NCBI GenBank assembly: GCA_963717145.1
Contig: OY970325.1
Span: forward strand, 1,184,001-1,248,000
Length of the DNA: 64,000 nt
Source of the DNA: an uncultured Armatimonadetes bacterium
GTDB lineage: Bacteria > Armatimonadota > UBA5829 > DTJY01
Direction: 5' to 3'
Made by a program: the position numbers and the translations under genes. The first letter of the stretch is position 1. The number at the start of each line of letters is the position of its first letter. The notes beneath the pieces were generated by a model that saw nothing but the letters and a program-made list of their open reading frames with translations, made no database searches and was not told the DNA's origin. Below are positions 7,518 through 53,169 of this stretch, piece after piece.

Positions 7518-7561
7518 AAACAAAAACGCCTGGACGCACATATGATATGTTTGCCCAGGCG
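7518..7561 (-). terminator. intrinsic terminator, expression platform of the ZTP riboswitch
   Basis: mRNA CGCCTGGGCAAACATATCATATGTGCGTCCAGGCG followed by TTTTTGTTT; overlaps the aptamer 3' hairpin. Confidence 0.85.
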
Positions 7562-7630
7562 ATCGGCATATCTCAAACCCCGGTGCTTCACGCGGTCAAT
7601 TCCGCTTCATATCGCCAGTCACACCGGGAT
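7552..7630 (-). ncRNA. ZMP/ZTP riboswitch (pfl motif)
   Basis: mRNA CCCGGTGTGACTGGCG...GCGGAATTGACCGC GTGAAGCACCGGG...GCCGATCGCCTGGGCA matches the pfl consensus; lies upstream of purH. Confidence 0.92.
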
Positions 7631-7657
7631 CGTTATTCGGTTGAGTAAGAAGACCGG

Positions 7658-45715: not shown

Positions 45716-45792
45716 TGGTAGCGGAGGGCGGACTCGAACCGTCGACGCCACGGGTATGAGCCGTGTGCTCTAACCAACTGAGCTACTCCGCC
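45716..45792 (-). tRNA. tRNA-Met(CAT), elongator type
   Basis: GGCGGAGTAGCTCAGTTGGTTAGAGC-ACACGG-CTCATAC-CCGTG...GGTTCGAGTCC...CTCCGCTACCA; lacks initiator features. Confidence 0.95.
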
Positions 45793-45839: not shown

Positions 45840-47201
45840 CGAATTGCTTCACGAACGATGTTACCGAAACGGAAACGTTGCCTCAGATAAGAATGTTACC
45901 GAAACTGAGGCATGGAGAAGATGACAACTGCATCCGTAAGAGAAGTCGTGAGGCGCAAACGCAAAGAATATGGCAAAGCCACCAAATCGGAGAAGAAGCT
46001 GGTATTGAGTGAAGTCCAGGGATTGACCGGTTACCACAGGAAGTCGCTGGTGAGGCTGTTCGCGAAAGGAGTTCCACCAGCGAGGAGTCCAGTGAGACGC
46101 GCAAGGAAGTCGAAATACGAGCCGATAGCCCACAAGCTGAAGACACTCTGGGCTGCGAGTTTCTACGCGTGCGGTAAGCGTCTGCAGCCGTTTCTGACTG
46201 AGTTTCTACCCATACTGGAGTCATTCGGGGAGATAACGGTTACACCAGAAGAAGAGAGGCTGCTTAACTCGATCAGCGCGTCGAGCATCGACAGGTTGAT
46301 GAAGAAGGAGCGGTCTGCCCTATCGCTAACAGGGAGGACCTTAACAAAGCCGGGGACACTGCTTCGGTCTCAGATCCCGGTGAGGACGTTTGCCGACTGG
46401 GATGAAGCTGAGCCTGGGTTCTTCGAGATGGACTTGGTGGGTCATTGCGGAGGTGACGGGAGCGGAGAGTTCCTGTATACTTTGACTATGACTGATGTAG
46501 CGACCGGATGGGTAGCGCTTGATGGAATGAAAGGCCGAGGGGAGCACGGAACCGTGCTTGCGGTGCAGTCCGCGTCCAAGAGCGCACCGTTTGCAGTCAG
46601 AGGCATAGATACCGACAACGGCGGCGAGTTCATCAACCATCACATGAACAAGTACTGTCGAGCGCACAGGATCACGTTTACGCGCAGTCGGCCTTACAAG
46701 AAGAACGATCAATGTCATGTAGAGCAGAAGAACTGGAGCGTAGTCCGGCAGTTTATAGGTTACCGGCGATTCGAGACGGACGAGCAGCTTGCGGTACTAA
46801 AGGCGATATATCCGCTGATCGTGGCGTATCACAACTTCTGTCAGCCCATGATGCGTCTTAAAGAAAAGGAGCGGATTGGGAGTAAAGTGATCAAACGCTA
46901 TGAGCCTGCGATGACGCCGTACCGCAAGCTGATAAGTGTTGAAGGATGGCTTGACGATGAAGCAAAGGATCGCCTCGATAAAGAACGTAGAGCGACGAAC
47001 CCGGTGGAGCTACTAAGACGCATCCACAGGCTATCATCAAAGCTTGACAGGATGCCGAACAAAGACAGATCGAAAGCGAGCAAGGCGCGGCCCTGAGCGG
47101 CGATCAAGAGCCGATCTGACATACTTGAACACACTACTTGGTAACATTATCAATGACGCAACGAATGGCGTTTCGGTAACAAAGTTAAATGAGGCAACAC
47201 G
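45840..47201 (+). mobile_element. DDE integrase-type IS (ISNCY/IS481-like), copy 1, 1362 bp
   Basis: Imperfect terminal IRs CGAATTGCTTCA / CGTGTTGCCTCA with internal TGTTACCGAA repeats; flanked by the 5-bp direct repeat CACTT. Confidence 0.9.
45912..47096 (+). CDS. DDE (rve-type) transposase
   Basis: EMDLVGHCG, IDTDNGGEFIN, FTRSRPYKKNDQCHVEQKN. Confidence 0.92.
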   Translation: MEKMTTASVREVVRRKRKEYGKATKSEKKLVLSEVQGLTGYHRKSLVRLFAKGVPPARSPVRRARKSKYEPIAHKLKTLWAASFYACGKRLQPFLTEFLPILESFGEITVTPEEERLLNSISASSIDRLMKKERSALSLTGRTLTKPGTLLRSQIPVRTFADWDEAEPGFFEMDLVGHCGGDGSGEFLYTLTMTDVATGWVALDGMKGRGEHGTVLAVQSASKSAPFAVRGIDTDNGGEFINHHMNKYCRAHRITFTRSRPYKKNDQCHVEQKNWSVVRQFIGYRRFETDEQLAVLKAIYPLIVAYHNFCQPMMRLKEKERIGSKVIKRYEPAMTPYRKLISVEGWLDDEAKDRLDKERRATNPVELLRRIHRLSSKLDRMPNKDRSKASKARP

Positions 47202-47207
47202 CACTTG

Positions 47208-47744
47208 TCAGTCAAACGACCCCGTCGGAACGTCTCGGAAGATCGGCAGGTACGTCCGCCAAGTCTCATTCCGAGCGCCATCGAGATACTTAGTCAGGCT
47301 GATGAACGGAACATATCTCGGCTTTCGAGGCTGCTTCATCAGGTGCATGTTGACTTTGTCGAGCGTCTTGTCGCCCTTCTTCGAGTTGCACTTCTTGCAG
47401 CAGCAGACAAGGTTCTCCCAGGTGGACGTTCCACCCAGCCGCTTCGGGGTCACATGGTCGATCGTCAGCTCCCTGGCCTGAAAGCCGCAGTACTGGCACA
47501 TATAGTTGTCACGCGCGAACACGCTCCGTCTGGAGAGACGAAGCTCCGGCAGGGGCCGCTTGACGTGATGCCTCAGCTTCACGACCGATGGCGGGTCGAT
47601 CGCACCGTCGAGCATGTGTATCACACCGTCGTTTGTGTGCAAGACCTCGGCCTTGCCCAGGAAGACCAGGACAATCGCTCGGCGGAGATTGCACACATTG
47701 AGCGGCTCGTAATCGTTATTCAGCACAAGTACCTCTTGGCTCAT
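47208..47744 (-). CDS. HNH endonuclease (McrA/COG1403-like)
   Basis: VLVLNNDYEPL, RD...CQYCG, LTIDHVTP...GG...WENLV.CC..CN..KG; GAGAGGAG RBS. Confidence 0.95.
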   Translation of the reverse strand: MSQEVLVLNNDYEPLNVCNLRRAIVLVFLGKAEVLHTNDGVIHMLDGAIDPPSVVKLRHHVKRPLPELRLSRRSVFARDNYMCQYCGFQARELTIDHVTPKRLGGTSTWENLVCCCKKCNSKKGDKTLDKVNMHLMKQPRKPRYVPFISLTKYLDGARNETWRTYLPIFRDVPTGSFD

Positions 47745-47789
47745 ATCAGATACCCGGTTCTCCTCTCTACGGCAATTCCAGGAACCGCT

Positions 47790-47825
47790 AACAAAAAACC
47801 CGCTATGCCATATGGCACAAGCGGG
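47790..47825 (-). terminator. intrinsic terminator in the HNH gene leader
   Basis: mRNA CCCGCT-TGTGCCATATGGCAT-AGCGGG followed by TTTTTTGTT. Confidence 0.8.
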
Positions 47826-48030
47826 CTACGAACACACCAATACATTTGACGGTTGACGGAATCGGAACACACCATCCTCGGTCAGTCGTAGCCGATTAGC
47901 GCTCAAGCCGTCGAGACAGTCGGCGGCCGGACAATCCGGCGCCATCTCGGCTTTGCGACTGGTCAGCGTATCGTACAGGTCGACAACTCTGCGCACGGGG
48001 GGCGACTCCCATCAACATTTCTTCTTTCGT

Positions 48031-48059
48031 ATTATACCAAGATTCTCGCGACTAGTCAA
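48031..48059 (-). promoter_or_regulatory. near-consensus sigma70 promoter TTGACT-17-TATAAT with TG extension
   Basis: Minus strand TTGACT AGTCGCGAGAATCTTGG TATAAT. Confidence 0.85.
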
Positions 48060-48064
48060 CGCGC

Positions 48065-49426
48065 CGAATTGCTTCACGAACGATGTTACCGAAACGGAAA
48101 CGTTGCCTCAGATAAGAATGTTACCGAAACTGAGGCATGGAGAAGATGACAACTGCATCCGTAAGAGAAGTCGTGAGGCGCAAACGCAAAGAATATGGCA
48201 AAGCCACCAAATCGGAGAAGAAGCTGGTATTGAGTGAAGTCCAGGGATTGACCGGTTACCACAGGAAGTCGCTGGTGAGGCTGTTCGCGAAAGGAGTTCC
48301 ACCAGCGAGGAGTCCAGTGAGACGCGCAAGGAAGTCGAAATACGAGCCGATAGCCCACAAGCTGAAGACACTCTGGGCTGCGAGTTTCTACGCGTGCGGT
48401 AAGCGTCTGCAGCCGTTTCTGACTGAGTTTCTACCCATACTGGAGTCATTCGGGGAGATAACGGTTACACCAGAAGAAGAGAGGCTGCTTAACTCGATCA
48501 GCGCGTCGAGCATCGACAGGTTGATGAAGAAGGAGCGGTCTGCCCTATCGCTAACAGGGAGGACCTTAACAAAGCCGGGGACACTGCTTCGGTCTCAGAT
48601 CCCGGTGAGGACGTTTGCCGACTGGGATGAAGCTGAGCCTGGGTTCTTCGAGATGGACTTGGTGGGTCATTGCGGAGGTGACGGGAGCGGAGAGTTCCTG
48701 TATACTTTGACTATGACTGATGTAGCGACCGGATGGGTAGCGCTTGATGGAATGAAAGGCCGAGGGGAGCACGGAACCGTGCTTGCGGTGCAGTCCGCGT
48801 CCAAGAGCGCACCGTTTGCAGTCAGAGGCATAGATACCGACAACGGCGGCGAGTTCATCAACCATCACATGAACAAGTACTGTCGAGCGCACAGGATCAC
48901 GTTTACGCGCAGTCGGCCTTACAAGAAGAACGATCAATGTCATGTAGAGCAGAAGAACTGGAGCGTAGTCCGGCAGTTTATAGGTTACCGGCGATTCGAG
49001 ACGGACGAGCAGCTTGCGGTACTAAAGGCGATATATCCGCTGATCGTGGCGTATCACAACTTCTGTCAGCCCATGATGCGTCTTAAAGAAAAGGAGCGGA
49101 TTGGGAGTAAAGTGATCAAACGCTATGAGCCTGCGATGACGCCGTACCGCAAGCTGATAAGTGTTGAAGGATGGCTTGACGATGAAGCAAAGGATCGCCT
49201 CGATAAAGAACGTAGAGCGACGAACCCGGTGGAGCTACTAAGACGCATCCACAGGCTATCATCAAAGCTTGACAGGATGCCGAATAAAGACAGATCGAAA
49301 GCGAGCAAGGCGCGGCCCTGAGCGGCGATCAAGAGCCGATCTGACATACTTGAACACACTACTTGGTAACATTATCAATGACGCAACGAATGGCGTTTCG
49401 GTAACAAAGTTAAATGAGGCAACACG
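48065..49426 (+). mobile_element. DDE integrase-type IS, copy 2 (direct orientation, offset 2225 bp)
   Basis: Same ends and identical protein as copy 1; one synonymous AAC/AAT difference seen; no matching 5-bp flanking repeat. Confidence 0.9.
48137..49321 (+). CDS. DDE (rve-type) transposase
   Basis: Protein identical to 45912..47096. Confidence 0.92.
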   Translation: MEKMTTASVREVVRRKRKEYGKATKSEKKLVLSEVQGLTGYHRKSLVRLFAKGVPPARSPVRRARKSKYEPIAHKLKTLWAASFYACGKRLQPFLTEFLPILESFGEITVTPEEERLLNSISASSIDRLMKKERSALSLTGRTLTKPGTLLRSQIPVRTFADWDEAEPGFFEMDLVGHCGGDGSGEFLYTLTMTDVATGWVALDGMKGRGEHGTVLAVQSASKSAPFAVRGIDTDNGGEFINHHMNKYCRAHRITFTRSRPYKKNDQCHVEQKNWSVVRQFIGYRRFETDEQLAVLKAIYPLIVAYHNFCQPMMRLKEKERIGSKVIKRYEPAMTPYRKLISVEGWLDDEAKDRLDKERRATNPVELLRRIHRLSSKLDRMPNKDRSKASKARP

Positions 49427-49507
49427 CCCGGAACCATGAGGCCGGGAACACCGTAGTACCAAGCGGGAGTCTACTCTATGTGAGTGGTCTGAGCGCACAC
49501 GGCCCCG

Positions 49508-49590
49508 GAGCATGTCCTTGACATGCTCGGGGGCCGCGAGAGCGGCGGGAGGGCATGTCCTTGACATGCTCGGGGGCGACTTCGTATACT
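49508..49590 (+). promoter_or_regulatory. promoter TTGACA-18-TATACT with two palindromic operator-like sites
   Basis: GAGCATGTC-CTT-GACATGCTC at 49508 and a 1-mismatch copy at 49551; the second contains the -35 (49561..49566). Confidence 0.65.
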
Positions 49591-49628
49591 TAGGCGTCGC
49601 AGCGGAAGCTGCTTTTTTTGCGCCTGTC

Positions 49629-49807
49629 CCGTAGGGGAGGCCTTCAACGGCCTCCTTCGCGGGCGACCGTTGAAGGTCGCCCCTACGGCTTGCGGACAAG
49701 GGCGACCGTTTGAGGTCGCCCCTACGGGCTACTGGAGGCGGGCGACCGTTGAAGGTCGCCCCTACGGCTTACCGGAGACGGACGGCCATTCAGGGCCGCC
49801 CATACAG
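49629..49807. repeat. GTAG-type REP cluster (GGGCGACCGTTGAAGGTCGCCCCTAC), one inverted plus four tandem units
   Basis: Units at 49661, 49700, 49740, 49780 with 11-12 bp linkers. Confidence 0.9.
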
Positions 49808-49835
49808 CTTGTGAGCAACTCGGAGGTACCCACGC

Positions 49836-52897: not shown

Positions 52898-53169
<272 letters not shown>

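Follow-up and report, generated by a model that had tools for sequence, protein, structure and literature searches.

A conserved leader mini-gene and intrinsic terminator that probably gate an IshB-like HNH nuclease gene in Armatimonadota

In leaders of the trp, his and leu type a promoter, a short leader frame and an intrinsic terminator precede the structural gene. In the pyrBI-type attenuator of enteric bacteria the leader frame enters the attenuator itself, and a ribosome that follows closely blocks the hairpin. A further group, which includes TnaC, SpeFL, SecM and the antibiotic-sensing leader peptides, is encoded by short upstream frames in which the C-terminal 15–25 residues are conserved, and the known arrest-peptide cases mostly mask Rho sites or remodel hairpins. 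Here we describe a locus that can be set beside these systems. It lies in a 64,000-nt stretch of the genome of an uncultured Armatimonadetes bacterium (contig OY970325.1, positions 1,184,001–1,248,000; hereafter the window, to which all coordinates refer). On the minus strand of the window a small HNH nuclease gene with the layout of IshB is preceded by a conserved leader mini-gene and a terminator that probably gate it, such that the nuclease would be made only on read-through.

In the parts of the reviews that were available, IshB is listed with IscB and IsrB among the RNA-guided OMEGA nucleases, and the name is given to proteins of about 180 amino acids that consist of a PLMP domain and an HNH domain (PMC11610941; PMC10734217; PMC13284715). 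The accessible portions of the literature searched report neither a function nor a partner RNA for IshB, and they contain no description of a leader frame or attenuator before IshB-like genes.

The module, in the order in which it would be transcribed, consists of the following features:

48031–48059 (−): sigma-70-type promoter; −35 TTGACT at 48059–48054, 17-nt spacer, TG-extended −10 TATAAT at 48036–48031; 11/12 matches
near 48024 (−): predicted transcription start of the leader, from the promoter position
48006–48010 (−): leader ribosome-binding site GGGAG, 8 nt 5′ of the GTG start
47826–47996 (−): leader mini-gene (upstream open reading frame), GTG start, 56 codons; frame open in relatives, change mostly synonymous
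47865–47909 (−): conserved leader-peptide core, codons 30–44, G-x-S-A-x-R-L-R-L-x-E-D-G-x-F, from an alignment of 18 loci
47828–47826 (−): TAG stop of the leader mini-gene, abutting the terminator hairpin with no gap
47793–47825 (−): intrinsic terminator; 27-nt hairpin 47825–47799 (−18 kcal/mol, foot CCCGC/GCGGG) and UUUUUU 47798–47793
47745–47792 (−): terminator–HNH spacer, with the HNH ribosome-binding site GAGAGGAGAA at about 47767–47758
47208–47744 (−): HNH nuclease gene, 178 amino acids; PLMP-like N-domain at about 3–67, IscB/Cas9-type HNH domain at about 67–143

The leader GTG is 28 nt downstream of the predicted transcription start, and the HNH start codon is about 46 nt past the U-run. 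A near-consensus promoter and an intrinsic terminator (at 47790–47825) had been proposed in an initial annotation of this stretch, and both are present, the promoter with its TG extension at 48059–48031 and the terminator as a hairpin followed by six T residues. Between 45500 and 49800 there are 6 promoter-like sites against 1.9 ± 1.2 in shuffles. A scan for the sigma-70 consensus found no minus-strand site upstream of the HNH gene in that interval besides the leader promoter, and none in the terminator–HNH spacer. The leader promoter is also found, without the insertion sequence, in the closest relative, locus L003, and it is therefore native rather than supplied by the insertion sequence that now lies next to it. 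Two other minus-strand frames were considered and rejected. One of 40 codons (47896–48018) begins 6 nt past the predicted transcript start and lacks a ribosome-binding site, and one of 44 codons in another phase (47741–47875) is not kept in L003. The latter begins within the leader mini-gene and crosses the terminator, and its stop codon overlaps the HNH start codon as ATGA.

Comparison with related loci indicates that the leader is very probably a translated frame. The upstream regions of 29 orthologue loci were taken, which with the window gave 30 sequences. In 26/30 there is at least one frame of 25 or more codons whose end is no more than 50 nt upstream or 12 nt downstream of the U-run start, and most motif-bearing frames end about 30 nt before that point, i.e., at the hairpin foot. 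In the remaining four (L020, L026, L027, and L030) the frame crosses the hairpin. Frame length is 56 codons in the window and roughly 35–60 in relatives, and each of the 10 family-level relatives that were read has a purine-rich site of the GGAG, GAGG, or GGGG type 7–10 nt upstream of its start codon. In L003 the frame has the same length and position; the peptides share 50% amino-acid identity and the HNH proteins 91%. Within the block D-G-L-S-A-N-R-L-R-L, 8 of the 10 codons differ only synonymously between the window and L003.

An iterated profile search was seeded with the window peptide and run over all candidate frames. Among 83 frames it linked 18 of 30 loci and among 513 frames 26 of 96 distinct loci, each through a single frame. 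The peptides so collected carry the motif R-L-x-L-x-E-D-G-x-F/C, in which most changes are synonymous. For the 18 loci the entropy at codon positions 1, 2, and 3 of the 15-codon core is 0.92, 0.69, and 1.53, and the ratio of nonsynonymous to synonymous change (pN/pS) is 0.40 in frame, whereas the shifted frames have 0.96 and 1.46. The frame itself contains no stop and each shifted frame 10, and the core shows codon-family switches for serine (TCN ↔ AGY) and arginine (CGN ↔ AGA). As this alignment was protein-based the coding test was redone on nucleotide-level alignments, which favor no frame. In the window's family the true frame is free of stops, the other two having 18 and 9, and its pN/pS is 0.65 against 1.19 and 0.87. 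One frame has the lowest pN/pS (0.48–0.65) in each of the groups f1, C, K2, F4, F3, and F2, and the same frame has the fewest stops except in F2, which holds 2 sequences only, and in K2, where there is a tie. Across five other clade groups the standout frame has a pN/pS of 0.48–0.64 compared with about 1.0–1.6 in the others. All-against-all clustering of the candidate frames was uninformative, all three frames being common to close relatives.

A profile search of 1.84 billion representative proteins gave 13 matches at E up to 0.001. Twelve of the 13 matched proteins were fetched and are 41–88 amino acids long, most of them with the leader motif; the thirteenth match is a 2242-amino-acid protein without a reportable stretch. 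Among relatives there are two clear matches to the peptide (E 5e-12 and 2e-6), both directly upstream of an HNH gene, and the rest are at chance level (E at least 0.02). No family was found for the peptide in Pfam, NCBIfam, or PADLOC, and no usable match in the protein atlas. By these comparisons a poorly studied phylum contributes a further conserved family of leader peptides.

The arrangement around the mini-gene is conserved as well. A scan with one genome per species turned up 257 relatives, the best 80 of 257 being nearly all labeled Armatimonadota, and 96 distinct upstream regions were left after removal of 14 loci identical to an earlier locus over the last 300 upstream bases. The order promoter, mini-gene, hairpin with U-run and HNH gene recurs across the phylum Armatimonadota. 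A hairpin followed by a U-rich run was found in 82/96 distinct loci under strict rules and in 91/96 under looser rules, and a promoter with at least 10/12 matches in 70 of the 82 terminator-bearing loci, with leaders of 131–350 nt. In an alignment of 66 hairpin sequences the foot CCCRC/GYGGG is nearly invariant and there is compensatory change at 7 of 9 consensus pairs. With the scan extended 60 nt beyond the hairpin foot, 29 of 31 motif-bearing frames have a stop codon and the other two run on. Relative to the foot these stops range from 19 nt upstream to 21 nt downstream, with 17 of them 2–5 nt upstream. In L026, L027, and L030, which belong to one genus, the leader frame begins M-S-D-D-D and crosses the hairpin, and its end overlaps the HNH start codon, an arrangement suggestive of translational coupling. 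In L020 the leader frame likewise crosses the hairpin. The U-run starts 21–154 nt before the HNH start in relatives, and in many loci 21–36 nt before it.

A search for an antiterminator gave no conserved alternative pairing, the consensus fold without the 3′ arm reaching only −0.25 kcal/mol. Upstream partners for the 5′ arm (10–13 nt) are inconsistent, with 0–10 of its bases paired across 20 single sequences. The lack of a conserved antiterminator disfavors attenuation of the trp type, but does not disfavor occlusion by the ribosome. The idea that the hairpin is of a special kind was dropped because a covariance model of it scores ordinary terminators nearly as high. The literal hairpin pattern CCCGC..GCGGGTTTTT has one occurrence in the own genome (5.37 Mb, 60.6% G+C), and canonical intrinsic terminators look scarce in that genome, with only 34 perfect-stem hairpins followed by at least 5 T on both strands.

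Two features expected of a leader-peptide attenuator were found here: a leader frame with a ribosome-binding site, on comparative evidence, and a terminator before the gene with no promoter between. The reading we develop is that the leader would be the mRNA of a small conserved frame, made from the near-consensus sigma-70 promoter, and that this frame would end at the foot of, inside, or just past a strong terminator located 20–150 nt before the HNH gene. As no promoter was detected for the HNH gene itself, the nuclease would be made only from transcripts that read through the terminator, and it is likely that HNH expression depends on such read-through. A ribosome close behind the RNA polymerase, or paused near the end of the frame, would cover the 5′ arm of the hairpin, so that termination is blocked and HNH is transcribed; if the ribosome lags or is absent the hairpin would form. 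From its general footprint, a ribosome at a stop codon near the hairpin foot would cover most of the 9–12-nt 5′ arm. Because there is no antiterminator hairpin, control by translation, if any, would be direct occlusion. It is conceivable that the conserved C-terminal half of the peptide, together with rare codons in the genome of the window, sets the pace or the pausing of the ribosome. The last 26 codons of the leader have an adaptation value of 0.446, which places them at the 1.5th percentile among 26-codon windows taken from 1170 long frames; their third-position GC is 0.50 compared with 0.78 in the HNH gene. Taken as a whole, a transcription attenuator that uses a leader peptide and a hairpin-covering ribosome, without an antiterminator, has an even chance of describing this locus, and that ribosome occlusion is the switch is put forward tentatively, at a little below even.

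Several observations weigh against this attenuator. First, the spacing of E-D motif and hairpin ranges from 44 to 68 nt, so that a fixed arrest geometry is not evident. Second, the rare-codon trend is weak across loci, the third-position GC of the last 20 codons being below that of the HNH gene in 18/26 with a mean difference of −0.07, and the codon-adaptation test in the window's own genome was made post hoc. Third, the nucleotide alignments of groups K and A give no clear coding frame. Fourth, the profile links only 26/96 loci, and other clades are related by eye via a looser motif, which consists of an acidic pair, a small residue, a hydrophobic residue, C/F/S, and then basic and histidine residues; kinship of these unlinked peptides to the window peptide is suggestive only. 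Fifth, the hairpin model gives 30.4 and 29.9 bits to two ordinary terminators from other parts of the genome, against 35.8 for the hairpin of the leader. In addition, a terminator adjacent to the stop codon is equally expected for any small stand-alone gene, and where the spacer is long there may be a weak, non-consensus HNH promoter.

Among the peptides of the looser type, those of the Chthonomonadaceae-type loci L064, L065, L067, L071, L074, L081, L091, and L110 have histidine-rich tails (H-L-H-Y-L-H-H, H-H-H-H). These tails recall leaders with histidine codons or metal binding; the window peptide has no histidine.

The initial annotation had guessed that the HNH protein is linked to RNA-guided systems, and this proved a good lead. 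The protein of 178 amino acids matches only HNH_5 and HNH in Pfam and has no RuvC domain; its structure model (mean predicted local distance difference test score, pLDDT, 78) consists of two small domains. The best NCBIfam match is guided_IscB (1e-19, 70.8 bits, under the whole-protein cut-off of 175), and the top sequence match in the PDB is an IscB. In an alignment of 24 orthologues the identity per column is 73%, and the catalytic D-H and N residues and the cysteine pairs are invariant. Residues 67–143 of the model are closest to compact Cas9/IscB HNH domains and align with NbaCas9, a type II-D Cas9, and YnpsCas9 with Z values of 9.9, 9.3, and 9.1 (VIA-align), and the HNH domain belongs to the IscB/Cas9 lineage. 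Residues 3–67 align with residues 2–52 of HfmIscB (Z 6.6, root mean square deviation (rmsd) 1.7, 51 aligned) and with residues 1–51 of TbaIscB (Z 6.0, rmsd 1.9, 51 aligned). The Pfam match to RRXRR on residues 5–48 is weak and below threshold (E 0.054, 13.8 bits against a cut-off of 25), and the literal motif is P-L-N-[VI] in place of PLMP. An N-terminal PLMP domain is thus predicted, with moderate strength, at the level of the fold, the Z values being middling. The protein has the layout of IshB, and we infer its identity with the IshB set from secondary sources.

The HNH gene is present in single copy in its own genome, and one full-length orthologue was found in 33/41 related genomes. In the closest relative its neighbors are the same as here, an ABC ATPase gene upstream and a tRNA-like stretch, read from the translation of an open reading frame, downstream. 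Copy number, the 41 relatives and synteny gave no sign of IS200/605 context or of mobility, and by these measures the HNH gene behaves here as a resident chromosomal gene.

Four other readings of the locus have to be weighed. The first of them is the main rival and is rather unlikely: the product of the mini-gene would be a free small protein with a role in trans, such as that of a partner or an inhibitor of the HNH protein; a leaky terminator would then set a high ratio of peptide to nuclease, and the ribosome would have no regulatory role. This would account for a motif that is conserved phylum-wide with cysteine and histidine positions, and for the strict linkage of the peptide to the HNH gene, as seen in the two clear matches in relatives. 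The strong promoter suggests an abundant product, and gene callers have predicted such small proteins. On the other hand conservation is confined to some 15–25 residues of the C-terminal half, and the N-terminal part is free in length and sequence. A conserved C-terminal half with a free N-terminus is typical of nascent regulatory peptides. In addition, the frame sometimes ends within or past the hairpin, so that the C-terminus itself is not conserved, and the absence of a Pfam, NCBIfam, or PADLOC family also speaks against a free protein.

It is improbable that the terminator merely ends the transcript of the mini-gene, and that the HNH gene has an unrecognized promoter of its own and is just a neighbor. 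Some loci do have 90–150 nt between the U-run and the HNH start, and the promoter scan was limited to the sigma-70 consensus. In the many loci with a U-run 21–36 nt from the start codon, however, there is no room for a promoter, and order and orientation are kept in 91/96 loci.

It is tempting to consider that the leader transcript serves both as mRNA and as the partner RNA of the nuclease, i.e., that it encodes the peptide and that the PLMP domain clamps its terminated 3′ end, the hairpin with the adjacent ribosome-binding site, in the way described for IsrB, the outcome being autoregulation or an omega-RNA-like particle. In the available part of the report on IsrB, the PLMP domain contacts the 3′-terminal hairpins and the Shine-Dalgarno sequence of its omega-RNA (PMC9581776). 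These contacts give a precedent for such an RNA, and the hairpin of the leader is at the matching place. The HNH protein is predicted to carry a PLMP-like domain, the element occupies the position of the omega-RNA in IscB and IsrB loci, and the hairpin foot is nearly invariant. Against this reading, the leader body has the evolutionary pattern of coding sequence, ordinary terminators too are scored by the hairpin model, and the HNH gene is single-copy, syntenic and not mobile. A multi-helix scaffold with covariation, as in omega-RNA, was not found, the terminator hairpin being the only conserved structure, and Rfam gave no match at the gathering score or at E up to 10, the IscB omega-RNA family included. 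No leader match longer than 15 nt and no evident target was found elsewhere in the genome, the longest exact match of 15 nt (E 1.1) being at chance level, and the idea of a guide target was dropped. A dual-function RNA is thus highly improbable.

The initial annotation had viewed the leader as an unrecognized structured RNA, which the evidence does not bear out. The repeats that it described are present, TGGTGTGTTC at 47874–47865 and 47839–47830 and CCGTCAA in tandem at 47859–47846, and both are absent from L003. Its three stems consist of 33 base pairs that are all standard in the window sequence, and long-range pairing similar to them occurs in the minimum-energy fold of the leader, but they are not conserved in relatives. 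The 278-nt leader folds at −101.8 kcal/mol compared with −95.2 ± 5.1 kcal/mol in shuffles (z −1.29), and 24 of 200 shuffled leaders fold at least as well, i.e., there is no excess folding energy. When the proposed pairs are counted on 10 family-level relatives, 54.6% of cells pair, compared with 52.0 ± 2.1% in shuffles; the observed pairing value was reached by 64/500 shuffles and the covariation score by 133/500, so that covariation in these leaders is no better than in shuffles. RNAalifold on the relatives retains only the terminator hairpin and one mini-hairpin of 5 pairs. What had been missed are the 56-codon open frame at 47826–47996 on the minus strand and the position of the module between two copies of an insertion sequence. 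The proposal that the RNA is either a partner of the nuclease or an attenuator fared better, as the attenuator layout, a strong promoter and a leader of roughly 230 nt with an intrinsic terminator before the HNH gene, is conserved across the phylum, whereas a guide role for the leader found no support here. The observation itself is thus partly confirmed and its interpretation partly supported, with regard to the attenuator layout and not to a structured RNA. A ligand- or protein-sensing RNA of the riboswitch or T-box kind, for which the stems in the window sequence and the framing of the leader by promoter and terminator could be cited, is largely refuted and very hard to credit, given the unremarkable fold energy, the unconserved stems, the coding signature, and the absence of a match to curated riboswitch, T-box, or 6S families or of a conserved aptamer-like fold in Rfam and the fold tests.

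The surroundings of the module contain the following features:

45716–45792 (−): tRNA-Met (CAT), just downstream of the HNH gene; own promoter 45834–45805
45840–47202 (+): insertion sequence copy 1, 1363 bp; 5 nt past the HNH stop and 5 bp upstream of the −35 of the tRNA-Met promoter
48065–49427 (+): insertion sequence copy 2, 1363 bp, with an rve/DDE transposase at 48137–49321; 5 bp upstream of the −35 of the leader promoter
7546–7632 (−): ZMP/ZTP riboswitch (Rfam, 70 bits)
52901–53166 (+): large bacterial signal recognition particle (SRP) RNA (Rfam, 192 bits)

A composite transposon made of the HNH module and the two insertion sequences was ruled out: copy 1 has its own 4-bp target duplication (ACTT), the outer flanks mismatch, and the closest relative shares the synteny without the element. 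As this relative has both the promoter and the neighboring genes and lacks the element, the comparison indicates that the rve insertion sequences were inserted recently and are unrelated to the HNH module. The own genome has 22 full-length copies with an identity of at least 99.85%, and a 4-bp target duplication in 17/22. The flank consensus, read outward from the left end, is NNNN-S-TTGACA, 17 nt, (tG)gTAtAaT. TTGAC (at least 4/5) is found at outward positions 6–10 in 14/22 copies, and a −10-like hexamer at 16–18 nt spacing in 19/22. Because these two motifs recur in the flanks of the copies, the element inserts about 5 bp upstream of sigma-70 −35 boxes, always in one orientation. Between copy 2 and the ABC ATPase gene (49502–49810) there are repeats without an explanation, namely a 33-nt repeat in four copies about 40 nt apart (49659–49810) and paired inverted or direct repeats of 25–36 nt (49502–49577).

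Within the family from which Cas9 arose, IshB is the branch that is least understood. In the whole phylum the IshB-like gene appears as a conserved single-copy chromosomal gene, and the RNA upstream of it as a mini-gene with a terminator and not as a guide scaffold, which argues against assuming RNA guidance for these proteins. If correct, the attenuator provides a concrete control circuit for a potentially dangerous nuclease, made up of a peptide-coding leader, hairpin occlusion and read-through. Should the dual-function RNA turn out to be true, the module would stand, as a living intermediate, between an HNH gene with plain autoregulation and the RNA-guided IscB/Cas9 lineage.

Compared with IshB as described in reviews, the window protein is similar in its size of about 180 amino acids, its PLMP-like N-domain, its IscB/Cas9-type HNH domain and its lack of RuvC. 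It differs in that the gene is chromosomal, syntenic and single-copy and shows no sign of an IS200/605 context, and in the motif P-L-N-[VI]. The leader resembles omega-RNA (HEARO RNA), as far as the available part of its description goes, in being a promoter-driven RNA of about 200–300 nt upstream of a nuclease with a hairpin beside the ribosome-binding site of the gene (PMC9581776). Unlike omega-RNA it has no Rfam match and no conserved multi-stem fold, its body is protein-coding, and there is no guide-like match in the genome. With leaders of the trp, his and leu type the module shares the order promoter, leader frame, terminator and gene, but it has no conserved antiterminator and the window peptide has no run of regulatory codons; the histidine-rich leader peptides of the Chthonomonadaceae loci are a partial likeness. 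In common with arrest peptides, it has 15–25 conserved C-terminal residues rich in R, K, H, and F behind a free N-terminus, and a stop codon at a position from which a stalled ribosome would cover a termination signal; it differs in that the distance from motif to hairpin varies. In relation to pyrBI there are differences in that the peptide sequence itself is conserved here and the regulated gene is a nuclease. As in pyrBI, however, the leader frame reaches or enters the terminator and no antiterminator is needed, and read-through is proposed to be set by the distance between ribosome and polymerase.

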